This document shows, piece after piece, positions 12,985 through 43,795 of a stretch of DNA of 64,000 bases. Within the stretch, counting starts at the first letter, position 1; every line of letters begins with the position of its first letter. The notes beneath the pieces were generated by a model. The model saw only the letters and a program-made list of their open reading frames with translations. It was not told where the DNA came from and did no database searches. The position numbers and the translations under genes are program-made. The stretch is taken from the NCBI GenBank assembly GCA_016866335.1, contig VGMT01000010.1:3144-67143 (forward strand), written 5' to 3'. This stretch comes from Bacteroidota bacterium (GTDB taxonomy: Bacteria > Bacteroidota > Bacteroidia > CAIKAF01).

Positions 12985-13145
12985 CTGTCATGAGCGGCCG
13001 CGGTAGGGATTGAACCAGGTAGCACGCAAAGGGGGCGGCGGTTGCCGCCGCGCGGCGAGGAGGCGACCTTGGGAGCCTCCGCAGCCCGCTGGCGGCCCGC
13101 CGGCCACGGCGGACTACCGGTGAAAGCCCGCAACCGCCCAAAAAA
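12985..13145 (+). repeat. high-GC intergenic repeat, copy D (core GGAGGCGACCTTGGGAGCC)
   Basis: ggtagggattgaaccaggtagc...gaggaggcgaccttgggagcctccgca...gaaagcccgcaaccgcccaaaaaaa. It shares these three blocks with the copies at 16625, 27880, 30345, 32742 and 43625. Confidence 0.7.
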
Positions 13146-13156
13146 ACCTTTAAAAA

Positions 13157-16100
13157 TTAACTCCCCGCAGCCACCGAACTGGCCTTTTTAATCCGTTCCT
13201 GCCGCCCTTCGGGGTGAAACAAATCAAAAACAACAATGTAAATGCCCGTGCGCGCCTTGCTGCCATCGTCGGTCAAACCGTTCCAAATGAAATTACCCTG
13301 CTTGGAAAGGTAGGTGTGCGGAAGCAGGTTGCGAATGGTTCGACCCGCCGCGTCGTAAATGGTTATACTGCCCATATACCCCTCTTTATCAAGCATGTAG
13401 CTAATACCCATTTGATCATCAAATCCATCGTTGTTGGGCGAGAAAATGTCGGGCATGAGTTCAAAATCACTGACCGCGCTGCCGTATTCTCCATAATGAG
13501 AATTGCGGTAGCCCGGTGTGCCATAACCCACCGTTTGCGCCGCCGAGGTCCAGTTCATTGGATTTTGAGTGGGCAAAGTATAGGAAATACGCTCCATAGT
13601 AACCCCTTTAAAATCCTTCAACAACGAAAAATGATACTCTTTTTCATTGTATGCCAAAACATCAAGCAACTGCAATGAAATGTTTGAAATGCCCACCACT
13701 CCATCGGAATTGTTGTAGCTGGGCAACGAAGTCATGGTCCAAAAAGCCCTTGGGTCCGGACAAACATATTGCGACTGAATTGAACTTGGATCGGTAGTTA
13801 ACACCAGATACTGACCGGGGAAAAGGGTTAATGGCAAGCCATGGATTGATTTGGGATTGGTTACCGTTTTTGTCAGGGTATCTGCATTTGACAGAAACAA
13901 TGCCGAAAGGTCAACCGCAGCAGTTCCGTTGTGGTAAATCTCTACAAAATCCACTCCTGAATCTTTGGGATTGCTCAACACTTCATTGATCAGAATCCAG
14001 CCTGAATCGGGCTGTTGACCTTGTGCCAAGCGCACTGAATCCAAGCTTATGGGGTTTCCGGCACAATCTTCAACACCCAAAACCTTAATCCAAATTTCTT
14101 GGCCCATGCCAGGCCCGTTGGCCAAGACCAAACGCACGGTACTTAAATCAACACCTTCAAATTGGGCCTCTAATGGAAATCCGGGATTCCCCGGAAGGCT
14201 AAATTGAAAAATGTCTAGGGAATTGGGATTCAAGGCCTCTGAAAAATAAATACGGGCCGTATCGCCCCGGGTTCCGCTTCGAAGAATAAAGGGAATCAGG
14301 GCATCGGGATTTGATCCAGACACTGAATTTGGGCCGCCCGGAGTTCCGCCACGCGGATCAACGCTCGCCGTCCAATTGCTGGAACCGGCACAGGGGTTTG
14401 AAGGATCGCGCATTTCAAGCGACCAGCCTCCGTTGTCTTTTTTTACGTTGTTGCCATACCAAGATTCCAAATAGCTGAGGCTGTGTATCATGCGGCCCCA
14501 AGGATCGTGCAGACTTAGGGTCGTTCCTGCATTGGTCAGGCTCATGCTACCCGCTGCAAAAACGGGTATGCCAGCAAACAGTGGATTGTTGGAATACAAA
14601 CCCACATTCGATTCTCGAATAAGTAGGCCGAATCCATTGGCAGGCAATGTGCCTCCAGCCAAGGTATAGCTGCTGTTCCCAACCTTTAAAACCCAACCGT
14701 TCATAGGGACAGCAAAGGCGTTCGTGTTTTTGAGTTCTATATACTCTGTGGCGGGCAACTGAACGGGGCTGGTTTCCTTGGCCATGATTTCATGGATCAG
14801 GATTTCAAATGGAGCCGGGGTATAGTTTACCAATTCGATGGAATCGGGAACCGTAAGCTGATTTCCAGCACAATCTGAAACCCCCGATAAAGCTCTTAGC
14901 CATAGCGGTTGATTGCTGGGAATGGCTACCGAAAAAACCAACCTAAGCTGGTTGGGCGCAACCTGAATCGTGCTGTTTGGAATTCCTATTCCTGCCGACA
15001 ACTGAAAATCAGAAGGCTGAACCGTTGAAGCATCAATATTTTTGCTCAAGGTCAACAGCACCTGAGTTGCTGTTTCAACCACCGCATTGCTTAGCTCAAA
15101 GGGAATAACCACCGTAGAAAAAACGCTGTTAGGCCTACCCGGCGTACCGCCAATAAGGTCCATTGAAGCTTTCCAGTTGGGTGCATCGGAACAAAACTCG
15201 TTTGGATTCACTCGCTCAATGGAATATCCCCCATCGTCATTTGCAGGGTCGTTGTAATACGCCAAAGAATAGGTCAACTGGTCGATCAATACACCGTTCG
15301 AATCTTTCAATTCAAGGGTTGCCCCTCCGTTGGTTAAGGCCGTCCAAGCAGAAGGATAAAAAATGGGAGTTGAGGCAGGAAAATAACCCTGAGCCGCCGG
15401 GTCGGCAATGACCAAAAACGAATCGGGCAATATGCTGGCTCCGCTAAGCGACCGACTGCTGCTGCCCACCGTTAAGGTAAAACCCTGCAAAGAGAAGGGC
15501 AACGGTGTTCTGTTGTACAGTTCAATGTATTCAAATTCGGGCAAACCAAAACTGGGACTTGGGTCTGGGTACACCTCATTAAACACAATATCGCGTGACG
15601 ACACCTGAACCCAGGCAAAAGGCAGGGTTGTTTGAGCCATGGGATTTCCAGAGGCATCTGAAACCCCTGAAACCGTTATTTGATAGGCCTGATTCGATTG
15701 AATTGGGTTTGATAGGGTCAGGTCGATGGATTGTGCTCCAAACAACTGGGCCGAACTGGGATTTCCAATGCCATTTGAAATGGAATACTGAGTCAGGGCA
15801 TTGATGGAAGAAGGCAGCAAGGATTCGTTAAAGCCCAAGCGGACTTGGGTTGGCGACAAGGCTTGAGCCGAGGTTAAAACGGGTGGGATAACATCAGCAG
15901 GTCCTGAACCCGTAACCACCACATCGTCCAGAAAAATCTTATCGGAACGGGTCGAGCTGTACCTGCACCACCAACCGCTAAAAATAGAGCTAGTAAATTG
16001 AGCATCGGTGGCCGTACCAATGGTTTGAAAAGCGGTTCCACCGGTTGGATCGGCTTTCAGCGTCCAAAATCCAACATTGTCGCGCTCCAAACGCACGCGT

Positions 16101-16549
16101 ATTCGAACCGTGTCCACATTTAAATACGAAACAGGCGACGAAATTAAGGCCGTGCTGCTGCCATTGCTGATCCTGCCAAATCGAAGTTGATCGGTTCCCG
16201 CTCCAATTTCAACATAATACCCGTTAATGGCCGCAGTTAAATCGGCCCCATTCGAACACACATAAAAACGGGCATAATTGCTGGTAGAAGGATTAAAGTT
16301 GAATTGGGCATAAAACTCCCAACTTGCTAAATTTATGGCAATTGAATTGGTAGCCAAATAGCTGGTATTCGATGACCCTGGACTGGGATTCAGCAACTGA
16401 AGTTGCTTAGCTGCATTTACAGTAAACACGTTGGAATTACCAATCCAGGTTGGATTTTGAGTAAAATCACCATCGGTAAAATCATCGCTAAATTGCGCAG
16501 AAAGTGAAACCGAAAAGACCAGACAGCAGGCTAAAAAAATCCGATTCAT
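13157..16549 (-). CDS. large secreted lamin-tail-domain (LTD) protein with T9SS type-B C-terminal sorting domain
   Basis: Signal peptide MNRIFLACCLVFSVSLSAQ. Two LTD-like segments (IVFNEVYPDP...EFEYIELYN and ILIHEIMAKE...EYIELKN). C-terminal DIFSPNNDGFDD...IYIVVFD matches the gliding-motility-associated/type-B CTD. Confidence 0.75.
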   Translation of the reverse strand: MNRIFLACCLVFSVSLSAQFSDDFTDGDFTQNPTWIGNSNVFTVNAAKQLQLLNPSPGSSNTSYLATNSIAINLASWEFYAQFNFNPSTSNYARFYVCSNGADLTAAINGYYVEIGAGTDQLRFGRISNGSSTALISSPVSYLNVDTVRIRVRLERDNVGFWTLKADPTGGTAFQTIGTATDAQFTSSIFSGWWCRYSSTRSDKIFLDDVVVTGSGPADVIPPVLTSAQALSPTQVRLGFNESLLPSSINALTQYSISNGIGNPSSAQLFGAQSIDLTLSNPIQSNQAYQITVSGVSDASGNPMAQTTLPFAWVQVSSRDIVFNEVYPDPSPSFGLPEFEYIELYNRTPLPFSLQGFTLTVGSSSRSLSGASILPDSFLVIADPAAQGYFPASTPIFYPSAWTALTNGGATLELKDSNGVLIDQLTYSLAYYNDPANDDGGYSIERVNPNEFCSDAPNWKASMDLIGGTPGRPNSVFSTVVIPFELSNAVVETATQVLLTLSKNIDASTVQPSDFQLSAGIGIPNSTIQVAPNQLRLVFSVAIPSNQPLWLRALSGVSDCAGNQLTVPDSIELVNYTPAPFEILIHEIMAKETSPVQLPATEYIELKNTNAFAVPMNGWVLKVGNSSYTLAGGTLPANGFGLLIRESNVGLYSNNPLFAGIPVFAAGSMSLTNAGTTLSLHDPWGRMIHSLSYLESWYGNNVKKDNGGWSLEMRDPSNPCAGSSNWTASVDPRGGTPGGPNSVSGSNPDALIPFILRSGTRGDTARIYFSEALNPNSLDIFQFSLPGNPGFPLEAQFEGVDLSTVRLVLANGPGMGQEIWIKVLGVEDCAGNPISLDSVRLAQGQQPDSGWILINEVLSNPKDSGVDFVEIYHNGTAAVDLSALFLSNADTLTKTVTNPKSIHGLPLTLFPGQYLVLTTDPSSIQSQYVCPDPRAFWTMTSLPSYNNSDGVVGISNISLQLLDVLAYNEKEYHFSLLKDFKGVTMERISYTLPTQNPMNWTSAAQTVGYGTPGYRNSHYGEYGSAVSDFELMPDIFSPNNDGFDDQMGISYMLDKEGYMGSITIYDAAGRTIRNLLPHTYLSKQGNFIWNGLTDDGSKARTGIYIVVFDLFHPEGRQERIKKASSVAAGS

Positions 16550-16624
16550 AGCGGAGGGCTTGTGTGCAAATGTACGCAATGGACTTTAGTTCGAGATTAA
16601 AAAAGGGCTCAGGTAAGAAATTGA

Positions 16625-16800
16625 TAAAGGTTGGGGGGAGTTTTGGGGCGCTTTCCGGCTTTCCGCTGTAGCTCGTTTGCCCCGAGCTTTTCAGTGCGGC
16701 CGGGGGCGTGGCTCCCAAATTCGCCCGCCCCCGACCCACCGAAATAAGCCCGCGGCGGCACTCTCTGCCGCTGCAATCCGGGCGCCAAACGGCCTGCTTA
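16625..16800 (-). repeat. high-GC intergenic repeat, copy F (diverged, reverse orientation)
   Basis: ttttggggcgctttccggctttccgc...ggctcccaaattcgcc...ctgcaatccgggcg parallels the reverse-orientation copies at 30345 and 43625. Confidence 0.5.
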
Positions 16801-16888
16801 ATTCGGCCTGTGATGTTTGGTTTGTTTTCCATGTTGTGGAATTTGATACTTTTGATTTGTTCTTGGTAAAAATTAACCTAAGGTTAAC

Positions 16889-17878
16889 ATGAAGATAGCC
16901 GTTGTAGGGGCCACCGGATTGGTTGGCAGGCAAATGATCTCCGTTCTGTCCGAACGAGGTGTGGAATGCTCGGAACTTATTCCCGTGGCTTCCGAACGGT
17001 CGGCCGGAAAATCCCTCTCTTTTCAAGGAAAAAATGTTCCCATCGTATCCTTAGATCAAGCCCTAAGCATGCAGCCCGATTACGCTCTGTTTTCGGCCGG
17101 AAGCAGTATTTCGTTGGAATATGCCGAAAAATTTAGCGGCATAGGCTGTTGCGTCATCGACAATTCATCGGCTTGGCGCATGGACCAAAACGTTCCTTTG
17201 ATTATTCCCGAGGTAAATGGCTATGCGCTCACGGGGCATGAACGCCTTATCGCCAATCCCAATTGCTCAACCATTCAGTTGTTGGTGGCCTTAGCCCCCA
17301 TACACCGCTCCTTCGGCATTCGCCGCATGGTGGTGGTTACCTTTCAATCTGTTTCCGGCGCCGGTAAAAAGGGCTACGACCAATGGATGGGCGAATTAAA
17401 AGGAAACGAAAACAGACCTAAAGCTTTTCCCCACCCCATTCACGGAAACGTTATTCCTCAATGCGACAGTTTTGAATCGGACGATTTTACCAAGGAAGAG
17501 CATAAATTGATTCGGGAAACCAAAAAAATTCTAAACGATTTCTCCATCCTTATCGCTCCCACCTGCACCCGGGTTCCCGTAGCCGTTGGGCACAGCGAAG
17601 CAGTAACCTGCGAATTGTTTCGCCCCTTTGAAATTCAGCAGCTTCTTGAAACCTTCCAAAAAGCGCCAGGAGTAACCGTGTTCGACAACCCTGAAAATGG
17701 AGCCTATCCCATGCCCCTTGACGTGGCTGGAAACGATGAGGTTTTTGTAGGTCGGGTTCGCCGAGACAATACCCAAACGCATGGCTTTCACTGTTGGATT
17801 GTGGGCGACAACCTGCGCAAAGGCGCCGCCACCAACGCAGTTCAAATATTGGAGTTGATGATCAAGAAAAGCAGTTGA
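16889..17878 (+). CDS. asd: aspartate-semialdehyde dehydrogenase
   Basis: MKIAVVGATGLVGRQM NAD(P)-binding start. Active-site region NPNCSTIQLLVAL. Confidence 0.9.
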   Translation: MKIAVVGATGLVGRQMISVLSERGVECSELIPVASERSAGKSLSFQGKNVPIVSLDQALSMQPDYALFSAGSSISLEYAEKFSGIGCCVIDNSSAWRMDQNVPLIIPEVNGYALTGHERLIANPNCSTIQLLVALAPIHRSFGIRRMVVVTFQSVSGAGKKGYDQWMGELKGNENRPKAFPHPIHGNVIPQCDSFESDDFTKEEHKLIRETKKILNDFSILIAPTCTRVPVAVGHSEAVTCELFRPFEIQQLLETFQKAPGVTVFDNPENGAYPMPLDVAGNDEVFVGRVRRDNTQTHGFHCWIVGDNLRKGAATNAVQILELMIKKSS

Positions 17879-18003
17879 TAGCTTTGTGTGGATTCCAACT
17901 CACTTAGGCATTGAAAGCCTGACTCTATACTTTCTAAATCTAAAACGCTCAAAGCGTTTGCATGGAAAAAAGCTCGCGGGCCCCTCAAGAAAAGATTGAA
18001 AAA

Positions 18004-19652: not shown

Positions 19653-19663
19653 GGTTTCTGGGT

Positions 19664-20713: not shown

Positions 20714-20852
20714 GTACCTTTCTTAAGTAGTTAACACAATTAGGGTGCAAAATTAGTAAAAGGTAAGCCAATGCAATAAATTAATTAAGGTATTTCTGCG
20801 GAATTGGGTAATTTTGAGCAATACATATTTTATAAACCAAAATTTAAAGCCC

Positions 20853-21125: not shown

Positions 21126-21177
21126 CTTAATCACGCATGTTGCGTGTATTAATCCTACCTTTGCTGAAAATTAACCG

Positions 21178-23043
21178 ATGGAATCGAGAAAAGAGCCGGG
21201 CCGAAACCGGATACCTGGAGGCAGAAAACCCGCCTCCGCCTCCGGAACAAGCCGCCCGGCAAGAAGCGAAAACGATGGATTTTCTGGAAACGCTGACCGG
21301 GCCTACGCTCGGAAGAAATCCGAAGGCTCGGAGGGCGAACGCCCACGCGGCCGCAGCAGAATGGTGAGTAAAGATTACAGCCCCAGGCCAGAACGAGACT
21401 CCGATTCAAACCGAGAACGTCCCAACCGCAGTGGTGGTTCTTTTTCTCGCGATTCAAAACCAGCGTTTGGCCCAAGAAAAACTGGATTCAACCGATCCGA
21501 TCGTTCCGACGACCGCCCAAGGCGTTCGTTCTCTGACGGCGAACGTCGTTCTGCTGCCGGCCGACCTGCACGCCCCGATTCCGATAACCGCAGCGAAAGA
21601 CCTTCTCGATACAATTCATCGGGCCAGGACAGGCCAGCACCACGACGCTCTTTCGGAGAGCGCAGTTCCGAAGACCGACCGTTTAGACCCAAACCCGGAT
21701 TCAAAAAACCCTTCGGTTCCAGAGATTCCGATGACCGTGGCGACCGCCCAAAACCCGGTTTTAAAAAGCCCTTCGGTTCCAGAGATTCCGATGACCGTGG
21801 CGACCGCCCAAAACCCGGTTTTAAGAAACCTTTTGGTTCCAGAGATTCCGAAGACAGACCCTTTAGACCTAAACCCGGATTTAAAAAGCCCTTCGGTTCT
21901 AGAGATTCCGATGATCGTGGCGATAGGCCAAGACCTTTCGCAAAGCGCGAAGGTTTCTCTTCTGACCGGGGCGAACGACCTAGGCCTTACCCAAAACGCG
22001 ATGCTTCATCGGGCGAACAAACAGAAAGGCCCTTATACACTAAAAAACCCTACGGAGCCAGAACGGCCGAAGGCGGCGAAAAACGGAGCAGCCGCTTTTC
22101 AAGGGATTCCGATGCCCGACCTGCCTTCAGGGATTCCAAACCAAGACCTGCGTTCAATACAGACGAAGCCAGCGGCGAGGAGAGACCAAAACGAACCTAT
22201 ACCAAACGCAGTGGGGAAGACGGAGAAAACCGCCCAGCCCGCAGTCCTAGGTCCGATTATAAAACCAGCAGGCCGGGCAAAACATTTGGCCACAACCGAA
22301 AACCCCGTCTTGCAGAAGGAGAAGAAGATGGCCCAAAAGGCGTTCGCCTGAATAAATACCTGGCCAATGCCGGATTGTGCAGCCGCCGCGAAGCCGACCA
22401 ATTTATTCAAAGCGGTGTGGTTGAAGTAAACGGAGAAATCATCACCGAACTGGGACATAAAATCCAACACGATGACGTGGTACTGTTTGGCGGAAAGCGG
22501 GTCAACGGCGACAAACCAACCTATGTTTTGTTGAACAAACCCAAAGACTACATTACCACCACCCGCGACCCGGAACAACGCAAAACCGTGATGGAACTGG
22601 TAAGTAGCCTAACCCGCAGCCGGGTATTTCCCGTTGGCCGTCTGGATCGAAATACCACCGGTGTTTTGATGTTGACCAACGATGGAGAACTGGCCGACCG
22701 ACTTCTGCACCCCTCTCGGAAAATCAGCAAGGTGTACCACGTTGAAGTAGATAAGCGATTTAAAATCAAGGACCTAAAAGCCCTGAAAACCGGAATTGAA
22801 CTTGAGGACGGAATTATTCAAGTGGACGACGTTAGCTTAGTAGAAGGAGGAACCCCCATGCAAATTGGCATACAAATCCACTCAGGCCGCAACCGAATTG
22901 TTCGCCGAATGATTGAACACCTAGGCTATCAAGTCATTAAACTTGACCGTGTTATGTTTGCCGGCCTAACCAAAAAAGGACTGAAACGCGGTCAAGCCCG
23001 CTTTCTTACAGAAGAAGAAGTGATTATGCTACGCCGACAATAA
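21178..23043 (+). CDS. rluB: 23S rRNA pseudouridine synthase (RluB/RsuA family) with long Arg/Asp/Pro-rich repetitive N-terminal extension
   Basis: C-terminal 250 aa contain an S4 domain (VRLNKYLANAGLCSRREADQFIQSGVVEVNGE) and the pseudouridine synthase core (FPVGRLDRNTTGVLMLTNDGELA). The N-terminal roughly 370 aa are low complexity. The start is uncertain; the alternative is the ATG at 21361. Confidence 0.8.
   Translation: MESRKEPGRNRIPGGRKPASASGTSRPARSENDGFSGNADRAYARKKSEGSEGERPRGRSRMVSKDYSPRPERDSDSNRERPNRSGGSFSRDSKPAFGPRKTGFNRSDRSDDRPRRSFSDGERRSAAGRPARPDSDNRSERPSRYNSSGQDRPAPRRSFGERSSEDRPFRPKPGFKKPFGSRDSDDRGDRPKPGFKKPFGSRDSDDRGDRPKPGFKKPFGSRDSEDRPFRPKPGFKKPFGSRDSDDRGDRPRPFAKREGFSSDRGERPRPYPKRDASSGEQTERPLYTKKPYGARTAEGGEKRSSRFSRDSDARPAFRDSKPRPAFNTDEASGEERPKRTYTKRSGEDGENRPARSPRSDYKTSRPGKTFGHNRKPRLAEGEEDGPKGVRLNKYLANAGLCSRREADQFIQSGVVEVNGEIITELGHKIQHDDVVLFGGKRVNGDKPTYVLLNKPKDYITTTRDPEQRKTVMELVSSLTRSRVFPVGRLDRNTTGVLMLTNDGELADRLLHPSRKISKVYHVEVDKRFKIKDLKALKTGIELEDGIIQVDDVSLVEGGTPMQIGIQIHSGRNRIVRRMIEHLGYQVIKLDRVMFAGLTKKGLKRGQARFLTEEEVIMLRRQ
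21661..21945 (+). repeat. about 4.5 tandem 60-bp direct repeats inside the rluB 5' region
   Basis: Units begin agagattccgatgaccgtggcgaccgcccaaaacccggttttaaaaagcccttcggttcc at 21721, 21781, 21841 and 21901, with a partial unit before. They encode DRPKPGFKKPFGSRDSDDRG x4-5. Confidence 0.85.
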
Positions 23044-23052
23044 CCCATTTAT

Positions 23053-27879: not shown

Positions 27880-28040
27880 CAAACCGCCACGCGTGGCGGC
27901 AGGGATTGAGGCGGCTACCCCGCAAAGCTGCCGAAGCCTGGCCCGCTAGGTGCGGAGGCGACCTTGGGAGCCCCCGCAAACCAGCTGGGCCAGCCTTTCG
28001 GCAACTGTGGAGTAGCGCGGAAAGCCCGGCTACCGCCCCA
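27880..28040 (+). repeat. high-GC intergenic repeat, copy A
   Basis: cgccacgcgtggcggcagggattgaggcgg...gccgaagcctggcccgctaggtgcggaggcgaccttgggagcccccgcaaaccagctgggccagcctttcggcaac...gcggaaagcccggctaccgccccaattaaaaa. About 90% identical to the reverse complement of 43625..43795. Confidence 0.75.
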
Positions 28041-28154
28041 ATTAAAAATCCTCAAAACAATGCATTCAATAGCCCCGACCCCAATCGAAAATCCCTTTTG
28101 AATTTTGCCCTCGTTTGATAAAACCCTCTTTTTTTGGCACTTTTGAGCTCAAAT

Positions 28155-30320
28155 ATGTTGACCATGCACGCTTTCTTTCGCTCCCTAATCGTTTCCCTAT
28201 TCCTGTTTGTCGGTTCAGCCCTGCACCTACTCGCCCACGAAGGCATGTGGCTGCCGCTGTTCCTGCAAAAACTCAACGAACAAGAAATGAAAGACATGGG
28301 GCTGCGCATCAGCATCAACGAAATCTATTCCGTCAACAACGGAAGCTTGAAAGATGCCGTTTTTATTTTTGGCGGAGGCTGCACCTCCGAATTGATTTCG
28401 AGCCAAGGCCTGCTGCTCACCAACCACCACTGCGGGTATTCGGCCATACAATCTCATTCCAGCATGGCCAACAATTACCTGCGCGACGGATTTATGGCCA
28501 AAACCCAAGCCGATGAATTGCCCAGCCAAGGACTAACCGCCACGCGCATTGTGCGGATCGACGAGGTTACTGCGGCCATTCTAAATCAGGCCGTTGACCA
28601 AAACGGCAAGCGCAACGAAACCCAAATCCTTGCCAATATTCAAGCTTTAAAGGAAAAAACCGCCGCCGAAACCGGCTATACCCCTGTGATTAAATCGTTC
28701 TTTTACGGAAACCAATACTTTCTATTTCTAACCGAGGTGTTCACCGATATCCGTATGGTTGCCGCGCCACCCTCCTACATCGGGAAATTCGGCTACGACG
28801 AAGACAATTGGATGTGGCCACGGCACACGGGCGATTTCAGCATTTTCAGAATTTATGCCGGCCCCGACAACAAACCCGCCCCCTACGCTGCCGAAAACAA
28901 ACCCTACATACCCTACCGCCACCTTGAAATTGACCTTAGCGGAGTAAAAGAAGGCGATTTTACCATAGTGTATGGATTTCCGGGGCAAACCCAGGAATAC
29001 CTGCCCAGCGAATCCATTCGCCTGCTAATGGACAGAACAAATCCTGCCCGTATTGAAATCCGAGAAAAAGCCCTTTCGGTCATTAATGCCGCCATGGCAA
29101 AATCTGCCGAAACCCAACTTCAATACGCCGCCAAACAAAGCCGAATCAGCAACTACTGGAAAAAATGGATTGGCGAAAACCGCGGCCTGCAGAAGCTCAA
29201 CGCCGTTCAGCAACGCCAAGCCATGGAAAAAGAATTCCTGAAATTGGGCGGCAATCCCGAAAACCTAAAAGCCCTAAACGCTCTTGAAATCTCTACCGCC
29301 GACGTTCAAATTGCCTACGAAACCTACATAGAATTCCTGCAATCGGGCCCGGAACTGCCCAAATTCATACGCAGTTACCTCAGCGCCCTCGATAACATAG
29401 GCAGCAGCAAAGACAAAGCCGAACTCGATGCCCTAAACCTAAAAACCCGGCAACAAATCGCATCGTTTTACGAAAAAACCGACCTAAAGGTCGATAAAGC
29501 CATTTTCCAAGAAACCTTTCCGGTACTCAAAAAACACCTGCCCAGCTCATACTGGCCTGAATCCCTGAATAACCAGGTGGAAGGCCGCGGTTTGCAGGTT
29601 TTTTTGCAAGGATTGTACGAATCTTCTGTTTTCGCTTCGGCCAAAAAACTGCAGGCGCATTGGGACAAATCGGTGGCGGCCAGCCAAGCCCAGCCCGAAC
29701 CGGCACTGGAATTTGTGCGGGGACTCTATCAATACCTTTTAACGGTGGTGCAACCCGCCTACACCACGGCAAACGCCGAGCGCGGCGCGCTGATGCAAGG
29801 CTACATGGCTCAGGTATTGAAAAGCTTCGAAGGCAAGCGCCGCCTGTATCCCGATGCCAACGGAACCTTAAGGCTTGCCTACGGCAAGGTCGAAGGCTAT
29901 TCCCCACGCAGCGGAGTACGCTACCACTGGCAAACCACCCTTACAGGACTGCTCGAAAAATACCAGAAAGACCATCCGGATTTTCACCTTCCCGACACCT
30001 TTATGCGGGTGGCTCGGCTGCAGGACTTTCAGCCTTACTTTTACGGCAAAGATTTGCCGGTGGCCTTTATCGGCAGCAACCACACCACCGGGGGCAACAG
30101 CGGCAGTCCGGTGTTGAACGAGTACGGGCGTTTGGTCGGCTTAAACTTCGACCGCACTTGGGAAAGCACCATGAGCGACATTATGTTCGATCCCGAACGC
30201 TGCCGCAACGTCGCCTGCGATGTACGCTACATCTGCTGGGTGGTCGACAAAGTCATGGGCGGACCGCATTTAATCGAAGAAATGACCTTAATCGAGCCTT
30301 CTTCCACACGCATGCGCTAA
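28155..30320 (+). CDS. S46 family dipeptidyl-peptidase (DPP7/DPP11-like)
   Basis: Signal peptide then EGMWLP. Catalytic His context GGCTSELISSQGLLLTNHHCGY. Length about 720 aa. The track ORF starts at 28134 and either Met is possible. Confidence 0.85.
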   Translation: MLTMHAFFRSLIVSLFLFVGSALHLLAHEGMWLPLFLQKLNEQEMKDMGLRISINEIYSVNNGSLKDAVFIFGGGCTSELISSQGLLLTNHHCGYSAIQSHSSMANNYLRDGFMAKTQADELPSQGLTATRIVRIDEVTAAILNQAVDQNGKRNETQILANIQALKEKTAAETGYTPVIKSFFYGNQYFLFLTEVFTDIRMVAAPPSYIGKFGYDEDNWMWPRHTGDFSIFRIYAGPDNKPAPYAAENKPYIPYRHLEIDLSGVKEGDFTIVYGFPGQTQEYLPSESIRLLMDRTNPARIEIREKALSVINAAMAKSAETQLQYAAKQSRISNYWKKWIGENRGLQKLNAVQQRQAMEKEFLKLGGNPENLKALNALEISTADVQIAYETYIEFLQSGPELPKFIRSYLSALDNIGSSKDKAELDALNLKTRQQIASFYEKTDLKVDKAIFQETFPVLKKHLPSSYWPESLNNQVEGRGLQVFLQGLYESSVFASAKKLQAHWDKSVAASQAQPEPALEFVRGLYQYLLTVVQPAYTTANAERGALMQGYMAQVLKSFEGKRRLYPDANGTLRLAYGKVEGYSPRSGVRYHWQTTLTGLLEKYQKDHPDFHLPDTFMRVARLQDFQPYFYGKDLPVAFIGSNHTTGGNSGSPVLNEYGRLVGLNFDRTWESTMSDIMFDPERCRNVACDVRYICWVVDKVMGGPHLIEEMTLIEPSSTRMR

Positions 30321-30344: not shown

Positions 30345-30525
30345 TCGTTTTTTACCTTTTTTGGGGCGGCTGCGGGCTTTCGCAGGTAGTACGCGGTTGC
30401 CGGGCAACTGCCCAGCGGCCTTGCGCGGGCTCCCAAGGTCGCCTGCGCGGCACGCGGGCAGTAACCCGCCACCCTTGCGGGCTACCTGGCTCAATCCCTG
30501 CCGCGGGTCTCTTCGTTTAAACACC
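30345..30525 (-). repeat. high-GC intergenic repeat, copy C
   Basis: tttttggggcggctgcgggctttcgcagg...gggctcccaaggtcgcctgcgcgg...ggctcaatccctgccgcggg. This is the reverse complement of the copy A/D pattern. Confidence 0.7.
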
Positions 30526-32741: not shown

Positions 32742-33007
32742 TTTTTTGGGCTTTTCGGGTCGGTTGGGTTTTGGTATTCGGGGTTGCGGCATTCGCGGTC
32801 GCGAGGGGCTACACCCCTCGCTGGGGTATTAAGCCCCTTCAGGGCTTGGCGCCGCCCGCGCCCGGGATCGAGGCGGCATGAAGGCGGTGGCGGGCGCTTG
32901 CCCCCGGACGAGGAGGCGACCAGGGGGAGCCACCGCAGGCCGATGGGGCAAGCAGCCCGGCAGCAACTGAATACAGCTAAGAGCCCGAATTGGCGCCCAA
33001 AAAATCA
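32742..33007 (+). repeat. high-GC intergenic repeat, copy E (longer composite with inverted ends)
   Basis: Begins gttttttgggcttttcgggtcgg (reverse-type end). Contains the hairpin cgaggggctacacccctcg and the core gaggaggcgaccagggggagccaccgca. Ends gagcccgaattggcgcccaaaaaatc (forward-type end). Confidence 0.6.
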
Positions 33008-33060
33008 GATTTACCTTGAGCAGCCTAACTGTTTTGAACAGCCTTTGTAGCCTGGCCGGC

Positions 33061-35160: not shown

Positions 35161-35238
35161 GAATTTGATACTTGGGCTTGATGGCCGGAAAAAATCAATG
35201 TACCTTGCAGCGATGTACTCGGTATTTTTACAAAGTTA

Positions 35239-36078: not shown

Positions 36079-36106
36079 GGGCAGACCTTGCGTCTGCCCC
36101 TACCCG
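36074..36106. repeat. GC palindromic hairpin unit, left copy of inverted-repeat pair flanking the ATPase gene
   Basis: ggtaggggcagaccttgcgtctgcccctacccg. It is the reverse complement of 37794..37826 over about 30 bp. Confidence 0.8.
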
Positions 36107-36115
36107 CGCCTGCCC

Positions 36116-37582: not shown

Positions 37583-37751
37583 TTAATTGTTTATATCTAC
37601 AAATATAGTTATTTTAAGCACATCGCAACATATCTATTTGTACATTTTTTGTATAAATAAGTCATTTTAGCTCTAAAATGTGATTTATTTATACAGAATA
37701 AATCTAGCCCTTGCTCATTTTCGTGGTTGGCAGCCACGAATGCATAAAAAT

Positions 37752-37826
37752 TGGTGGCTAGGTTGGGGCAGACGCGGGTTGGGGCAGACGCAAGGTAGGG
37801 GCAGACGCAAGGTCTGCCCCTACCCG
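37752..37826. repeat. tandem partial plus complete GC hairpin units (right copy of inverted-repeat pair)
   Basis: ggttggggcagacgcgggttggggcagacgcaaggtaggggcagacgcaaggtctgcccctacccg. Three direct gggcagacgc units, the last forming the full palindrome. The whole cluster is bracketed by the 12-bp inverted repeat agccacgaatgc (37733-37744) / gcattcgtggct (37846-37857). Confidence 0.8.
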
Positions 37827-37884
37827 AAATCATAAATAGTCCAGCATTCGTGGCTAAAATATCCGGGCGTTTGCCAACCAAAAA

Positions 37885-39273
37885 ATGCAGACCTTTGCAA
37901 AAAAACGCGTGCATTCTGAGCATACCATAGCCGCACTTTCTACGCCGCTTGGCGGGGGGATTGCCTTAATTCGGGTAAGCGGTCCCCACAGCTGGACGGC
38001 GGTTAGGCAGTTTTTCAGTCCCATGGGGAAGAAACCTTCTCCCTGGAGCCACCGGCTGGCCCTGGTTGGAAATTGGATGGACGGGGAAGAGGTATTGGAC
38101 CAAGTGGTTCTGCTGCCTTTTAAAGGCCCGAACTCCTTTACCGGCGAAGATTTGGTTGAAATCAGTTTTCATGCTTCGCCCTATGTGGTCGAGCGGGCCT
38201 TGCATCAAATGGCCGGACTTGGCATTCGGCCGGCCCAAGCGGGGGAATTTACCCGTAGGGCATTTATGAACGGTAAAATGGACCTGGCTCAGGCCGAAGC
38301 GGTGGCCGATTTGCTCTCGGCCAGCCACAAAGCCGCCGTGCGCTTGGCCATGCAGCACCTCGGCGGAGCCTTTTCAAACCGCATTGCCCAAATGCGGCTA
38401 GGTCTGCTGGATTTTTGCGCTTTGCTTGAACTGGAACTGGATTTCTCGGAAGAAGACGTTGAATTTGCCTCGCGCAGCGACCTGGCAGAACGCATACAGC
38501 AGATTGAACAGCAAATTCAGGCATTGCTGCAGACCTACAGCATGGGCAGGGCCATAAAGCAAGGCATTCCCGTGGCCATTGTGGGCAGGCCAAATGCGGG
38601 CAAAAGCACCTTGCTGAACGCCTTACTGCAAGAGGAACGGGCCTTGGTATCTGACATTCCCGGCACCACCCGCGATACGGTAGAAGACGAGTTGATTTTA
38701 GAGGGCATTCGGTTTCGGTTTATTGACACAGCGGGAATCCGCGACACCCAAGACCCCATTGAAAAACTGGGCATAGAACGCAGTTTCGATGCCCTGCGCC
38801 GCTCGGGAATGGTCTTGCATTTGGGCGATGCTCAAAGCCAATCGCTGGAAGAGTTTGAGCTGGAAGAGGCTGACTGGAGGGAACGGCTAGGGTTGGAAGA
38901 CAAGCCCATTTTTCGGATTTGGAACAAGATGGATGTGCCTGGGGCACAAAAGCCGGCAGCGGGTGGTATAGCGATTTCGGCGCGGAACGGCGATGGTCTG
39001 GAAGAATTAAAGCAAGCCTTGCTTGATAATCTCGCTGAAATGGGCTACGGCAACCAAGACCTGTTGATTAGTCAGGCCCGGCATAAGGGCTTGTTGGAGC
39101 AGGCTGCCCAAGCATTGGAGCGGGTGCGGCAGCACCTGGAAGCGGGCTACAGCGGCGATCTGCTGGCCTTGGATTTGCGGCAGGCCATGCGTCCGCTGGA
39201 GGAACTTACCGGGCAAATTGGCACGGAAGAAGTGCTGGGGCATATCTTTGGGCGATTTTGCATTGGGAAGTAA
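37885..39273 (+). CDS. mnmE: tRNA modification GTPase MnmE (TrmE)
   Basis: N-terminal TIAALSTPLGGGIALIRVSG. G-domain motifs GRPNAGKST and DTAG. The C-terminus ends in CIGK. Confidence 0.9.
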   Translation: MQTFAKKRVHSEHTIAALSTPLGGGIALIRVSGPHSWTAVRQFFSPMGKKPSPWSHRLALVGNWMDGEEVLDQVVLLPFKGPNSFTGEDLVEISFHASPYVVERALHQMAGLGIRPAQAGEFTRRAFMNGKMDLAQAEAVADLLSASHKAAVRLAMQHLGGAFSNRIAQMRLGLLDFCALLELELDFSEEDVEFASRSDLAERIQQIEQQIQALLQTYSMGRAIKQGIPVAIVGRPNAGKSTLLNALLQEERALVSDIPGTTRDTVEDELILEGIRFRFIDTAGIRDTQDPIEKLGIERSFDALRRSGMVLHLGDAQSQSLEEFELEEADWRERLGLEDKPIFRIWNKMDVPGAQKPAAGGIAISARNGDGLEELKQALLDNLAEMGYGNQDLLISQARHKGLLEQAAQALERVRQHLEAGYSGDLLALDLRQAMRPLEELTGQIGTEEVLGHIFGRFCIGK

Positions 39274-39627
39274 AGGCATACCTGCGCAAATGCCTACCCG
39301 CCTGAACTGTGCAGGCAGAATGCGAGCGGTTTACTTGAAGGTAAGCCGAATATCTTAATAGCGATTTGTTAAGCAAATTATGCGCCAAAAACGCTGACAA
39401 TGCACGCTTGGATAGAAGATGACCAATCCCTAGTTTTTGAAGTATGAAACCCAAAGGAATGAACTTATGCCATAGTTATCTTGCCTTTATCGGGCTACCT
39501 AGGAATTTTAGGTGGTTGCCACTTGAGAATAAAATCATTTGAGGCGAAGCCCATAAATCAATAAACAAAATAACGTGTCATAAAAAGGATAAAAAAACGT
39601 ATATTTGTCCTTTATAAGACAAGTTAA

Positions 39628-39948
39628 ATGAAAACAACCCCTGCTATATTGCCTAAAAACATGAAGATTTTAAAAGATCTGGGTGAGCATATACAGTTAG
39701 CTCGCTTGCGCCGAAAATTGAGTGCAGAGCAAATGGCTGAGCGCGCGGGACTAGGCAGAAAAACGATTTATAATATAGAACAAGGCAGCCCAACTGTTGC
39801 CATTGGAAGGTATTTACAGGTGCTCTTTGTATTGGGATTAGAGAAAGATTTAACCCAAGTTGCAGCCGCAGACCCTTTGGGCCGAAAACTGCAAGATGCC
39901 GGAATCATTACCCATAAGCGTGCACCCAAACAAAACAAAAAGTCATGA
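39628..39948 (+). CDS. XRE-family helix-turn-helix transcriptional regulator
   Basis: HTH LSAEQMAERAGLGRKTIYNIEQG. 106 aa; an internal Met at 39661 is an alternative start. Confidence 0.65.
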   Translation: MKTTPAILPKNMKILKDLGEHIQLARLRRKLSAEQMAERAGLGRKTIYNIEQGSPTVAIGRYLQVLFVLGLEKDLTQVAAADPLGRKLQDAGIITHKRAPKQNKKS

Positions 39949-40129
39949 AGGACATGAAATTTGGAATCAGGAATGGCGAGATTGAACAATTGAAGCCTGC
40001 GTTTCGGTTGGTGGTTCATGCCTAGGTGTAAAAAATGAAACAACTACCATTCCTCTGCGGGTATTTCCCTCGGGGCATGTAGCCATTGCAAAAACCTCCG
40101 GAGCTTAAAGGTCCGGATGGGTTCTGCTG

Positions 40130-41424
40130 TTAATTCGGGACGACCAACCGAAAGCCCCAGTCGTTGGTGCGGTAGGAAGGAAAGCCGGCGCCGCGGCCAG
40201 CCGAGCGGCAAGCCGCGCTGTAGGCGCGCCAGCCGCCCCCACGCAGAACCCGATCCGACCCCGATGATGGACCTTCGGGGTTGGTTTGGGCACCGCTGGA
40301 ATAACCTCCATACCAATCGCTGCACCACTCCCAAACATTACCGTGCATATCGTACAAGCCCCAGGCATTGGGAGCATAGGAGCCCGCGGGCTGGGGTTTT
40401 CCAAGGAATGTTCCTTGTGCGCAGGTGGAATAGGGATAATTGCCATCGTAATTCGCCTCGCTGCTGCTTAAGCAGCTTCCCGTATTGAAGGGGCTTGTGG
40501 TTCCTGCCCGGCAAGCGTATTCCCATTCCGCCTCGGTTGGCAGCCGGCAGCCCATCCATTGGGCAAAGGCCGTGGCGTCGTTCCAATCTACATTAATTAC
40601 TGGCCTATTGCCACGCCCCCACCCTTCATCAGATGGCTTTGTTCTTCCCGTAGCATCGCAAAAGGCGTCGTACTGAGCAAAAGTCACCTCCAACTTGCTC
40701 ATTTTAAACCCGCTTAAAGTCACCGAATGCTGGGGGCCTTCGTTGCTTCCCCGGTCGGATTCAAAACTTGGGCTGCCCATCGTAAAGGTTCCGGCGGGGA
40801 TTGAAACCCATTGAATGATTGGGAAGATAGGATCTATTCCAACAGAAAAGTTTTTAGACCCGTAATTGTTTTGGGAATCATAAACAGTTAAACTGTAATT
40901 CCCAGGCAGTAAGTTGAAGATATTTGGTCCTGTACCTCCGTTTGACCAAGCATATGTATATGGCGGCACACCTCCGTTTACTATTGCGGTGGCAGTGCCA
41001 TCAGCGGTGTAAGGTGTACTGGCTACTGTCGAGTTAACCTGAATGGCTAAAATATTCCCACCTGACAAAACTCCAATTTCAAACGACACCGAGTCTATAA
41101 CTCCGATTGCATCTACAACAACAACATTGTAAAAACCAGGCAACAGGTTGAATCTTAACGAATCTGAGCCACCACCATTTGACCATTGATATACATAGGG
41201 TGGACTCCCCCCCCCTTCACCTGAATAATTGCCTGTCCATTTGCTATACCAAGGCCTGAAGCATCAACCTTAGAAACCGATATAGACAAGACGGAATCTG
41301 GATTAAAACAAGTCCAATTTAGTAAGTTAAATAAAAAAACTACGGACAGTAAACCATAATAATTTCGAGAAAACAAACCCGAATTTTGTTTGACTCTTGA
41401 AGGTGAATTATTAAAAATCTTCAT
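40130..41424 (-). pseudogene. SprB-repeat / formylglycine-generating-enzyme (FGE-sulfatase, SUMF1-like) domain surface protein, frameshifted at a G9 homopolymer
   Basis: Track ORFs 41155..41424 (signal peptide, then ...IIQVKGGGVHP*) and 40130..41143 (SprB repeat GGVPPYTYAWSNGG, then FGE domain ...GFRLV). Removing one G from the G9 run (coding strand; C9 on plus at 41207-41215) reads KGGSPPYVYQWSNGGGSDSLRFNLLPGFYNVVVVDAIG, a perfect SprB repeat continuous with the downstream ORF. Confidence 0.7.
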
Positions 41425-41631
41425 AAATTATGCTATCCATCGTTCTACAAAATTAAATCAGAATACAGTTTAAAAGCAAACCCTATTTTTAATTAACTTA
41501 AAGGTACTCTTTTTTGTACTGCCTTTGCATTATTGTTGTACATGCAGGCATTACCGAATTTTTTCTGCTGTGTCAAGACATCAAAAGCCACACGACACCA
41601 CTAAGAATTAGGGTGCTGTGTTTTGAGGTTG

Positions 41632-41705
41632 TGATCCCATCAGGATTCGAACCTGAGACCTACTGCTTAGAAGGCAGTTGCTCTATCCAGCTGAGCTATG
41701 GGACC
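41632..41705 (-). tRNA. tRNA-Arg (anticodon TCT)
   Basis: Reverse complement GGTCCCATAGCTCAGCTGGATAGAGCAACTGCCTTCTAAGCAGTAGGTCTCAGGTTCGAATCCTGATGGGATCA; anticodon loop CTTCTAA. Confidence 0.85.
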
Positions 41706-41746
41706 TCTTTTGGGCAACAAAAAACCCCGTTTTACCGGGGTTCTTG

Positions 41747-41820
41747 TCGGGGTGGCAGGATTCGAACCTACGACCTCCTGCTCCCAAAGCAGGCGCGATA
41801 CCGGGCTACGCTACACCCCG
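41747..41820 (-). tRNA. tRNA-Pro (anticodon TGG)
   Basis: Reverse complement CGGGGTGTAGCGTAGCCCGGTATCGCGCCTGCTTTGGGAGCAGGAGGTCGTAGGTTCGAATCCTGCCACCCCGA; anticodon loop TTTGGGA. Confidence 0.85.
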
Positions 41821-41828
41821 AAGTCCTT

Positions 41829-41917
41829 GGCGGTGAGGGGGGGATTCGAACCCCCGGTACCATTACTGGTACGGCAGTTTAGCAAACTGCTGGTTTCAGC
41901 CACTCACCCACCTCACC
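41829..41917 (-). tRNA. tRNA-Ser (anticodon GCT), CCA encoded
   Basis: Reverse complement GGTGAGGTGGGTGAGTGGCTGAAACCAGCAGTTTGCTAAACTGCCGTACCAGTAATGGTACCGGGGGTTCGAATCCCCCCCTCACCGCCA. Long variable arm; anticodon loop TTGCTAA. Confidence 0.85.
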
Positions 41918-42168
41918 AAGGTGGACTGCAAAAGTAATCATTCAGGCTTTTCATGCAAATATTTTTTTTGATAAGATTTACCACCCTTGGTAGTTCATTA
42001 ATATACCTAATTTTGATTTGTGAACCCGAAGTTGTTTTCCCTGCTAATCATTTTAGGCCTAGGCATGTATACCTGTGGCTACAACCCATCGCCGGTTCAG
42101 GAACCTACACCCATTTAGGTTCAATCTACCTTTTCTTTTTCTTTGAAAAACAGCGCTTGGAGTTCGGC

Positions 42169-42642
42169 ATGGTCTGCAGAAAATCGGCTTCAAGTCGCCA
42201 TGCCTTCCATTCCCTCAAACCTAAATCCCTTTGCAAACCCAACCTCGACAGGCCAAGCCATTCAACGACAACTCCAATTAATGCGGGAATTTTCGCTGCC
42301 CATTTTCAAACCTGGATTAAGGCAGAAACCCTTCGCCCCTTTTTTAAAACTGCCTTAGCCAAAGGACTTAGTCCCTTGATGGCCTTGTTGGTTCATGCCC
42401 TTAGAGCCGCCCTTGGCCTAATTCTTACCTTTTTTGTGCAGCGCCTTCCTTTGCTTTTAAGCGGCACCGTGGTTATTGAGGTTATGTTTGGCATTCCTGG
42501 GTTTGGTCGGCTGGCCTGGCTGGGGGTTTTAGAAAACGATTCCTCGGTGGTGCTGGGCTGCCTGCTCCTGGCGGCGCTGGCCGGCTGGGTTTCTGTGTAC
42601 CTAAATGGGTTGTTAACCAAATACCGCATTTCAATCCAATGA
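42169..42642 (+). pseudogene. ABC peptide-transporter permease (DppB/OppB-like) C-terminal remnant
   Basis: Only the last roughly 110 aa (LVHALRAALGLILTFFVQRLPLLLSGTVVIEVMFGIPGFGRLAWLGVLENDSSVVLGCLLLAALAGWVSVYLNGLLTKY) resemble the conserved EAA-loop/C-terminal region of DppB/OppB permeases. The upstream portion of the 229-aa track ORF has no permease similarity. Confidence 0.4.
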
Positions 42643-43583
42643 ATTGGGCTGTTCAAATGAGCCGTTGTTGGCTTGGCTTGCTCTTGGTTGCCCTTTTAAT
42701 TTCATGGGGGCTTGATTTGCAGCCCGGTCGAATTCCAATGTTGCAAAGTGCCTTGCCCCCAGGTTCGGCTGAAGCGCCGTTGGGCACCGACCACCTGGGC
42801 CGCCACATTGGTTTAGGAATACTCCAAGGCTTTCAATCCATTCTGGTTTTAGCCGTTCCGTCGTTGCTGCTCAGCCTGATTCTTGCCCTGGCATCGGCCT
42901 ACCTACTTTCTTGCGAGCACCGGCCCTATCTTTCGTTTTTTAATCTTGGAATAGGTCTTAGCAGCGGTTTGATTTTGGCACGCTCCCTTCCTTGGTTATC
43001 GGCCTTTCCCCTTTGGTTGCTGCTGCTGTTGTGCGGCCTATTTTTGGCCTCGTTTTTTCTTCCTGCTTGGGGTCCTGGCATTAGCCTGCCTTTTGTGGGC
43101 CTTATTCGTTTGCTTCAACGTATTCTTTTATCTATTCCGGGTATAGTGCTGTTGTTCAGCCTAAATCCCGATTCATACTTGGAATTAATCGTGCTGCTGG
43201 GCGGAACATCTTGGGTGGCTTTAAGCCAGTTTTCAGAGCGAAGTATGCTTGATTTCTTTGGCAGCACCGAATACCAAAGTGCAAAATCCTTGGGCATTCC
43301 TATGCTGCGCATCGTAGGTAGGCATTTGTTTCGTCGGTTGCTTGAAACGCTTCGGCCTCAGTTGGCATGGCTGCTGGCCGGCTTTATAGTTCTTGAGGGC
43401 AGTTTGGGTTTTTTGGGGCTGGGATTGCCGGCACAGCACTGGGGTTGGGGGCAAATGCTTCGCCTGGGCTTAGGGCATACTGAACTGTGGTGGACCTGGC
43501 TATTTGCCAGCCTGTGCATCTTATTTACGGTGGTTTCGTCGTTTGTTTTGATGCACAATGGGCACAGGCCTAGGGTAAATTAA
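42639..43583 (+). CDS. ABC peptide-transporter permease (DppC/OppC-like), possibly degenerate
   Basis: N-terminal PLGTDHLGRHI matches the DppC/OppC signature (LGTDxLGRD). Multiple TM helices, unusually Leu-rich. The start overlaps the upstream remnant's stop. Confidence 0.5.
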   Translation: MNWAVQMSRCWLGLLLVALLISWGLDLQPGRIPMLQSALPPGSAEAPLGTDHLGRHIGLGILQGFQSILVLAVPSLLLSLILALASAYLLSCEHRPYLSFFNLGIGLSSGLILARSLPWLSAFPLWLLLLLCGLFLASFFLPAWGPGISLPFVGLIRLLQRILLSIPGIVLLFSLNPDSYLELIVLLGGTSWVALSQFSERSMLDFFGSTEYQSAKSLGIPMLRIVGRHLFRRLLETLRPQLAWLLAGFIVLEGSLGFLGLGLPAQHWGWGQMLRLGLGHTELWWTWLFASLCILFTVVSSFVLMHNGHRPRVN

Positions 43584-43624
43584 GTCTGATTTGGGTTTTT
43601 AATAAGGAGTTTTTTTAAAGGTAT

Positions 43625-43795
43625 TTGGGCGGGTTTCGGGCTTTCTGGGCTAGTACGCGGTTGCCGAAAGGCTGGCCCAGCTGGTTTGCGGTGGCTCCTA
43701 AGGTCGCCTCCGCACCTAGCGGGCCAGGCTTCGGCACCCTTGCGCGCTAGCCCTGTCAATCCCGCCCGCGGGCGAAGTAATGCCTTATTATCTTA
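43625..43795 (-). repeat. high-GC intergenic repeat, copy B
   Basis: gtatttgggcgggtttcgggctttctgggctagtacgcggttgcc...ggtggctcctaaggtcgcctccgcacctagcgggccaggcttcggcaccc...caatcccgcccgcggg. This is the reverse complement of copy A. Confidence 0.75.

Follow-up and report, generated by a model that had tools for sequence, protein, structure and literature searches.

A stretch of 64,000 nucleotides from an uncultured freshwater Flavobacteriales-like bacterium (contig VGMT01000010.1 of assembly GCA_016866335.1, positions 3,144 to 67,143 of the forward strand; hereafter the window) contains six copies of a GC-rich, structured intergenic repeat, 146-149 nt long and typically of about 148 nt, which is best explained as a family that functions like the REPIN, ERIC, or REP elements yet belongs to none of them. 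The family is real and well defined, and it is new relative to the literature searched, in which no description of it was found by core sequence or by keywords; intergenic palindromic repeats as a kind are already known. The favored reading, to which a probability of roughly 0.45 is given, is that of a non-autonomous REPIN/ERIC-like palindromic DNA element, recognized as a folded single strand via two tandem-G.A modules. It is drawn from the conjunction of a long compensating hairpin, high copy number, random extragenic placement, lack of target-site duplications, inverted doublets, vertical persistence, concerted evolution, and lineage restriction.

Copies, fold and covariation

A covariance model built from the six copies claimed by the first-pass annotation, with which the window was searched with all filters off, returned exactly six full-length matches (78-149 bits), in both orientations as had been claimed. 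The next-best matches were the antisense strands of the same six copies at no more than 20 bits, and because nothing else rose above noise, the strand assignments are secure. The annotated coordinates were right to within about 10-100 bp and have been refined by the model (Table 1), except that the supposed composite at 32742-33007 consists of a single copy (32855-33001) and, ahead of it, some unrelated GC-rich hairpins. The GC content of the copies is 68-74%, against 46.7% window-wide, and all six are intergenic between Pfam-supported genes, bearing out both the GC contrast that had been described and the view of a genuine multi-copy, GC-rich, intergenic, structured repeat family over which open reading frames (ORFs) are artefacts. 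The 19-mer GGAGGCGACCTTGGGAGCC has four window matches with at most one mismatch, where none is expected, but it is not an invariant core as was first thought: two copies have it exactly and two with one mismatch, c16k differs from it at four positions, c32k has a 1-nt insertion, and orthologues in other genomes have GCGACGCGAGGAGC. Likewise, the near-identity noted between c27k and c43k holds for their inner 100 nt or so, but the outer stems differ.

A single strand of each copy can form one irregular rod, with about 43 base pairs, that spans the whole 148 nt, rather than a hairpin limited to arms around the core. RNA folding of the six window copies gave -75 to -88 kcal/mol with z = -2.9 to -6.6 (for example, -87.9 kcal/mol and z = -3.9 for c13k; -85 kcal/mol and z = -6.6 for c43k). 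Covariation was computed on 43 copies from other genomes, with 500 shuffles and slid controls: 91.7% of pair cells are standard pairs, and the conserved structure that the first-pass annotation had left to be checked is evident in compensatory changes, 37 of the 43 pairs having changed on both sides. This level of pairing and covariation was reached in 0/500 shuffles, and pairing fell to 37-52% when the partner strand was slid by one to three columns. The helices thus vary freely yet remain complementary, including the outermost one (column 7/180: GC 28, CG 5, UA 2; column 10/170: GC 34, CG 5), and no outer helix forms between the flanks beyond the ends of the element (-5.6 versus a null of -5.5 kcal/mol).

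Sequence conservation is highest at positions that are unpaired or not Watson-Crick paired, in agreement with the earlier remark that the conserved part is unpaired, and this fits a recognition site. A basal module, on the same strand in every copy, sets GGGAUUGA opposite GAAAGCCC (A.G, U-A, U-A, G.A, A.G), and an apical module has the form GGC-GA-[CC-UUR-GG small hairpin]-(G)A-GCC, of which the loop can change to CTTTAG, ATTTGG, or GCGAG in copies recovered without the core pattern while the GCGA...GGAGC flanks stay. Several GCAA bulges and an A-rich tail after ...CCGCCC, following the rod, are also constant. The conserved non-canonical positions are purine-rich on one strand, and mismatches in paired columns are more often purine-purine (69) than pyrimidine-pyrimidine (19), with the same bias in every context class; the polarity belongs to the element itself. 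Structured RNAs typically show G-U pairs more commonly than A-C, unlike these copies, which have 35 G-U versus 50 A-C in paired columns. Because this ratio is independent of orientation to the upstream gene (15/23 in sense copies, 13/19 in antisense copies), selection of the hairpin within the flanking mRNA was rejected.

Orientation, context and persistence of the copies

Extension of the window by up to 10 kb per side added four copies, for a total of 10 in 76 kb, or about one per 8 kb, from which the hundreds per genome first suggested are an extrapolation, and dozens more were found in relatives; the first-pass annotation had allowed that no further copies might exist, which is not the case. 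The 10 copies of the window organism are oriented -, +, +, -, +, -, +, -, +, -, and eight further independent neighbor pairs in other genomes are all inverted. Overall, 16 of 17 neighbor pairs are inverted (P = 1.4e-4), the single exception being the second most widely spaced pair, 15 kb apart. Close doublets are head-to-head (82 bp apart at locus L035, 48 bp at L193) or tail-to-tail (32 bp at L197), none of them being head-to-tail. Both tails-in arrangements (around a gene of the type IX secretion system (T9SS), an S46 peptidase gene, and an lpd-like gene) and heads-in arrangements occur, and since orientation relative to genes is random, the inversion rule relates copy to copy, not copy to gene. 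The alternation might be explained by the purging of direct repeats separated by a few kb, by an enzyme producing inverted dimers, or by a polar function for which both polarities are needed locally; an enzyme making head-to-head and tail-to-tail dimers has been proposed for REPs (PMC3733652). Near-strict inversion of neighbors is a simple rule for which no explanation is accepted and which a whole genome could put to the test. No transposase gene was found near copies in the window or in the fetched loci, and the possibility that inverted pairs enclose one was rejected, the enclosed genes encoding a lipoamide-dehydrogenase-like protein, the S46 peptidase, and a T9SS protein.

Genomic context was assigned for 52 copies, of which 40 are flanked by genes on both sides. 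The head is beside a gene's 5' end and the tail beside a 3' end in 14 (antisense), the reverse holds in 12 (sense), nine are in divergent regions, and five are in convergent regions, a spread near that of random placement among intergenic regions. Thus, the check for preferential siting 3' of genes that had been advised was run and gave context classes near random, with orientation independent of flanking genes. Copies beside the 3' end of a gene are 3-30 bp from the stop codon; the distance to a stop codon is 12-33 bp for many heads, and for many tails a convergent stop codon is 3-15 bp away. The neighbors are core genes (such as asd, recG, trmD, atpG, and lpd), with no integrase adjacent. 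A regulon, riboswitch, or leader was rejected because all four contexts occur and the downstream genes are unrelated (encoding LepA, DnaX, pyruvate kinase, peptidases, cytochrome c, and others). An intrinsic terminator was rejected as well: the sense strand has an A-tract after the rod, the antisense strand has a T-tract before it, there is no U-tract, and 22% of copies are in divergent regions. The best reading of the near-random contexts, the unrelated downstream genes, the lack of a consistent promoter or U-tract, and the absence of a preference for G-U is that the element acts at the DNA level, independently of flanking transcription.

Syntenic relatives of the window were found at 91% nucleotide identity (L032), 77-80% (L166), and 74-78% (L037 and L051), and c13k, c16k, c27k, and c30k occupy the same sites in them. 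Orthologous copies are 81-98% identical, versus 74-91% for coding sequence: the L037:1298 orthologue of c13k has 94% identity, as compared with 74% for coding sequence, and the L032 orthologues of c30k (L032:1035) and c32k (L032:3543) are 96% and 98% identical where coding sequence is 91% identical. The c16k orthologues L037:4928 and L051:2803 show four compensatory double changes, and c30k, at 81% identity to L166:12180, shows five together with one broken pair, while its flanking intergenic DNA can no longer be aligned. In c27k the outer stem of the orthologues L166:9765 and L113:2193 is kept, but the inner 80 nt or so differ from theirs and are of the type found in c43k and at several non-orthologous sites of the ErkenSummer metagenome-assembled genome (MAG), which points to gene conversion. 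L032 shares copy c32k with the window, but the orthologous region of L166, which is rearranged, lacks it, suggesting gain or loss of sites among related genomes. The syntenic blocks are collinear throughout, and no inversions bounded by copies were found between relatives.

An exact scan of a species-representative genome collection for a 16-mer of the core yielded 112 loci, most of them chance matches in high-GC phyla; among these loci, the covariance model confirmed the element solely in Bacteroidota. Many loci belong to three related MAGs (casp15-mb.160, LaPlata_bin-1703, and ErkenSummer_bin-6618), single diverged copies are present in MAGs labelled Sphingobacteriaceae, Flavobacteriaceae, Flavobacterium, and Cryomorphaceae, and a variant with a different base is present in Flavobacteriales M30B58. 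Of 80 metagenome loci gathered via the S46 peptidase, only three close relatives (81-96% amino-acid identity) have the element, which is absent from about 1 Mb of 77 other Bacteroidota contigs carrying S46 peptidase loci. The window organism itself was found at 99.8-100% identity in JGI samples Ga0194119-Ga0194133. Judged from these sequence comparisons, only a few related lineages of Bacteroidota have the family. Two nearly identical stretches of contig, L082 3260-3480(-) and L112 100-260(+), share the inner rod and core and have a different base (GGCGCCGGCCCCCGGGGAGGCAGGGTAGCCC...GGACTACCCGCCGGAGCGGGAAAAGGCCGCC); L082 is labelled Competibacteraceae and is probably a mis-binned Bacteroidota contig, because its GC content is about 47%.

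Comparison with known elements and rival explanations

In Enterobacteriaceae and Vibrio, the ERIC or IRU elements are intergenic imperfect palindromes (about 127-150 bp) that occur in either orientation, are partly conserved in position, and have no known transposase. The likeness, assessed by description, is one of form only, in a different phylum, and we know of no ERIC with two conserved tandem-G.A modules or with alternating neighbors. The attC sites of integrons (57-141 bp) conserve structure over sequence, act as a folded single strand, take their polarity from unpaired bases, and are situated a few bp past a stop codon. The present element likewise conserves structure, has polar non-paired bases, and is often a few bp past a stop codon; however, attC sites have a single orientation in a cassette array beside intI and RYYYAAC/GTTRRRY ends, whereas here orientation alternates, the neighbors are core genes, and no integrase is adjacent. 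The Correia or NEMIS repeats of Neisseria are hairpin-forming and intergenic too (about 100-155 bp, hundreds of copies), but their 26-bp terminal inverted repeats are conserved and come with a TA duplication; here, no conserved terminal inverted repeats and no duplication were found. To our knowledge, there is much work on intergenic palindromic repeats of Proteobacteria, but there are hardly any descriptions from Bacteroidota, and even fewer from uncultured freshwater lineages.

REPINs (PMC3116915) are imperfect hairpins of about 70-110 nt in single-stranded DNA or RNA, with frequent compensatory changes, a random extragenic spread, hundreds of copies, no target-site duplication, vertical inheritance, and long persistence. 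The element resembles them, being also a long compensating hairpin that is extragenic, long-persisting, and free of target-site duplication. A REPIN is composed of two identical short REP palindromes as conserved ends with a variable spacer, whereas the basal arms here are conserved but different (GGGATTGA versus the reverse complement GGGCTTTC) and are not inverted copies (GGGATTGA versus GAAAGCCC), conservation at the apex is among the strongest, a GTAG foot is lacking, and the element is 148 nt long. REP dimers are head-to-head or tail-to-tail, with orientation alternating within clusters (PMC3733652), and the element shares with REPs and BIMEs, including those of the Bacteroidetes TnpA(REP) subclasses 2.4 and 2.6, its nature as a GC-rich, intergenic, lineage-specific palindrome with inverted dimers (PMC3733652; PMC6006769). 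A REP/BIME-like nature, one of the options first entertained, is therefore the best-supported one, but membership among REPs or REPINs fails on size, on the unpaired GTAG foot, and on the twin-seed architecture. The only GTAG in the element is internal, paired with CTAC, and covarying (column 26/156: GC 19, CG 14; column 30/153: GC 30, CG 9).

According to the favored reading, the form that matters would be the folded single strand, more likely of DNA exposed in replication or repair than of RNA, and the two tandem-G.A modules would offer a recognition surface to a trans-acting protein. Copies would be mostly inherited vertically and long resident at the same sites, their competence to form the hairpin being kept by selection together with gene conversion between copies. 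New copies would be rare, would leave no target-site duplication, and would arise or survive inverted to the nearest copy, giving rise to head-to-head and tail-to-tail doublets and to local alternation. Copies may be tolerated only where promoters stay undamaged, which is proposed to account for their siting so near to stop codons.

Several observations weigh against this reading. Tandem sheared G.A modules and GCAA motifs are classic features of RNA, and as RNA, although the antisense strands also fold stably, four older copies (c13k, c16k, c30k, and c32k) have the better fold on the sense strand. The conservation of copies in place, stronger than that of the neighboring genes, suggests a host function and not mere parasitism. 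No clean empty site was recovered, the site of the L166 copy at 21295-21441 being occupied in the window by a different GC-rich repeat. No ORF in 2.07 Mb of fetched loci matched the HuH...Y patterns of Y1 HUH transposases (taken from PMC6006769), although a single-copy gene would probably be outside this sample. REPs are 20-40 bp long with an unpaired GT[AG]G/CGTC foot, and examples of subclass 2.6 are about 24 nt, whereas the element, at 146-149 nt and about 43 pairs, exceeds that length and has the foot GCGGCAGGG without an unpaired GTAG or CGTC. Furthermore, a second, unrelated repeat in the window (36079-36109 and 37763-37826; also L032 6763-6785) consists of short hairpins, GGTAGGGGCAGAC-(CTTGC/GCAAG)-GTCTGCCCCTACC, bounded by GTAG on one side and by CTAC on the opposite side. 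One hairpin is in a 38-bp convergent intergenic region, and another ends a run of three GGGGCAGACGC units. These short hairpins fit the Bacteroidetes REPs far better than the 148-nt element does (PMC6006769), and because they resemble the REPs termed "double-foot" that Cyanobacteria and Bacteroidetes are reported to have with TnpA(REP) subclass 2.4 (PMC6006769), the genome may also have a canonical REP/RAYT system.

The foremost rival, which is nevertheless unlikely, is a large structured non-coding RNA family whose sense strand is transcribed, from its own promoter or as part of a processed neighboring transcript, and whose rod binds or sponges an RNA-binding protein. The strong covariation speaks for it, as do the purine-rich conserved unpaired and non-canonical positions on one strand only, the better folding of the sense strand in the four older copies, and the conservation of orthologous sites above that of coding sequence. 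A weak enrichment of TTTG/TGAGG is found just 5' of the element, at the position of a Bacteroidetes -7 box, with 10 TAnnTTTG-like matches ending 2-12 nt upstream versus 4.8 expected; however, none is perfect and most copies have none, which is too weak to claim a promoter, and the many heads so close to a stop codon leave no room for one. Such a family is also disfavored by the close approach of many tails to convergent stop codons, by the A-tract instead of a U-tract after the rod, by the failure of G-U to exceed A-C, and by a density, inverted doublets, and local alternation that are unlike the arrangement of RNA genes. Rfam 15 at gathering thresholds detected only tRNAs in the window and eight loci, and at permissive E-values the best sub-threshold matches of two variants were to unrelated families (E = 0.09-0.11). 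The small-RNA family that had been among the first suggestions is thus weakened, by the lack of a consistent promoter or terminator, by the absence of a G-U excess, and by the density of about one copy per 8 kb.

It is improbable that the copies act in cis as RNA hairpins of the flanking transcripts, serving as orientation-independent terminators, 3'-end stabilizers, or RNase III targets, although such roles have been proposed for REP, ERIC, and Correia elements, and the siting within 3-30 bp of the stop codon at gene 3' ends and the stable fold of both strands would suit them. It also counts for such roles that, over positions 12000-52000 (40 kb), intrinsic-terminator-like sites are no commoner than in shuffled sequence (31 versus 31.4, and 29 versus 30.9). 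None of these sites coincides with a copy, and none is at an obvious gene end, so that the organism seems to use canonical terminators little. On the other hand, nine of the 40 copies are in divergent regions, which contain no 3' end, and convergent regions are not enriched (5/40); the strand asymmetry is the same in sense and antisense copies, without a flip in the ratio of G-U to A-C; and only a minority of genes have a copy.

A bolder conjecture, and a long shot, is that the copies are host-selected polar hairpin signals, placed every 8 kb or so with neighbors opposed and read as folded single strands by a dedicated protein through the two tandem-G.A modules, which would make them a kind of signal for chromosome organization or single-strand processing not described before in bacteria, or else that they are an RNA class with hundreds of genes that forms ribonucleoproteins. 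Slimmer still are the chances of polar chromosomal sites that the host maintains for organization, replication, or repair through a host protein, with neighbors needing opposite polarity. The inversion of nearly all neighbor pairs whatever the gene arrangement, the fairly regular and exclusively intergenic spacing, the retention in place with compensatory changes, and the independence of orientation from transcription would accord with such sites, but the narrow lineage range of the family is incompatible with a general function, c32k is absent from the orthologous region of L166, and we know of no protein partner and no bacterial precedent. Classical miniature inverted-repeat transposable elements (MITEs), that is, insertion-sequence deletion derivatives with terminal inverted repeats and target-site duplications, are largely refuted and very improbable despite the small uniform size, palindromic form, intergenic siting, and multiple copies, one subfamily being at least 90% identical at non-orthologous sites: the longest word shared by the flanks has a mean of 5.37 against a null of 5.37 +/- 0.16 (which leaves room for duplications of 2-3 bp), where a MITE would have conserved terminal inverted repeats the outermost helix here covaries, pairing does not continue past the ends, neither the window nor the loci contain a related insertion sequence or transposase, and phages, plasmids, and viral contigs gave no match.

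What is unusual about the family is its length, its exceptionally clear covariation (37 of 43 pairs), its two non-canonical modules resembling a protein-recognition surface, and its conservation in place above that of genes that are 74-80% identical, a combination hard to square with a purely parasitic element. It offers a tangible case in which to ask if repeats of this kind are replicators, domesticated signals, or RNAs, and the covariance model could be added to RNA or repeat libraries, so that GC-rich islands of this kind are no longer called as Arg/Ala/Pro-rich ORFs in MAG annotation.

Copies in the window and adjacent sequences

The genes flanking the window copies encode T9SS proteins (LTD/CHU_C and FG-GAP), Asd, an AsmA-like protein, the S46 peptidase, a DUF6150 protein, RecG, and TrmD. 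The tail of c13k is 15 bp from the stop codon of a 1140-aa T9SS gene (13157..16579(-)), and its head is 82 bp from the start of the gene at 12915..12526(-). The divergent intergenic region between this T9SS gene and asd contains c16k. Copy c27k follows the AsmA-like gene, 76 bp after its stop codon, and is situated upstream of the promoter region belonging to the S46 peptidase gene (28134..30320(+)), the stop codon of which is 41 bp from the tail of c30k; the head of c30k is 90 bp from the start of the DUF6150 gene. The tail of c32k is 60 bp from the RecG stop codon, and c43k is in a convergent intergenic region between the gene of a 314-aa protein (42639..43583(+)) and trmD (43835..44509(-)).

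Table 1. Positions, within the window, of the six copies, their apical cores, and the adjoining hairpins; the two scores of each copy are covariance model scores.
Feature	Coordinates	Strand	Remarks
Copy c13k	12997-13142	+	122.8 and 122.9 bits
c13k apical core	13059-13077	+	GGAGGCGACCTTGGGAGCC, exact
Copy c16k	16643-16788	-	divergent subtype B (GGCGCCCGGATTGCAG...GGAAAGCCGGAAAGCGCC); 78.4 and 62.7 bits
c16k apical core	16710-16728	-	GCGGGCGAATTTGGGAGCC, four mismatches to consensus
Copy c27k	27893-28041	+	148.3 and 146 bits
c27k apical core	27954-27972	+	exact
Copy c30k	30361-30507	-	145.1 and 137.3 bits
c30k apical core	30428-30446	-	one mismatch
GC-rich hairpins abutting c32k, outside the family	32742-32854	.	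no model match; stretch conserved in L032
Copy c32k	32855-33001	+	subtype B; 93.5 and 83.5 bits
c32k apical core	32912-32931	+	GGAGGCGACCAGGGGGAGCC, 1-nt insertion, altered loop
Copy c43k	43624-43772	-	149.4 and 141.9 bits
c43k apical core	43693-43711	-	TTAGG variant, one mismatch

The sequence immediately 5' of c32k contains two small hairpins, GCGAGGGGCTACACCCCTCGC and AAGCCCCTTCAGGGCTT, which are kept in the 91%-identical MAG locus. A weak T(T)TGAGG motif is found 2-4 nt before the 5' end in the flanks of about 40% of copies (for example, L027 5185-5200, L037 5074-5090, and L035 1752-1832) and could either belong to the element or represent a context favored for insertion. TACCTTT(A/G), which is like the -7 box of Bacteroidetes, recurs from a few to tens of nt past the A-rich tail.

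About 1.3 kb from c13k, a serine recombinase/resolvase gene (PF00239; 11053-11649(-)) is beside a tRNA gene (10878-10962(+)), which may mark the boundary of an integrated element; no link between this site and the repeats was found. Between c13k and the divergent gene of a PKD-domain protein, about 60 nt (TTACCGAAGGTATGCTTTTGTTTTTGACTTTAAAACA) are 100% identical in the window (12916-12996) and L037 (1215-1297), where coding sequence is 74% identical. This conserved stretch is probably a Bacteroidetes-type promoter, because the opposite strand has a TAccTTCG box.

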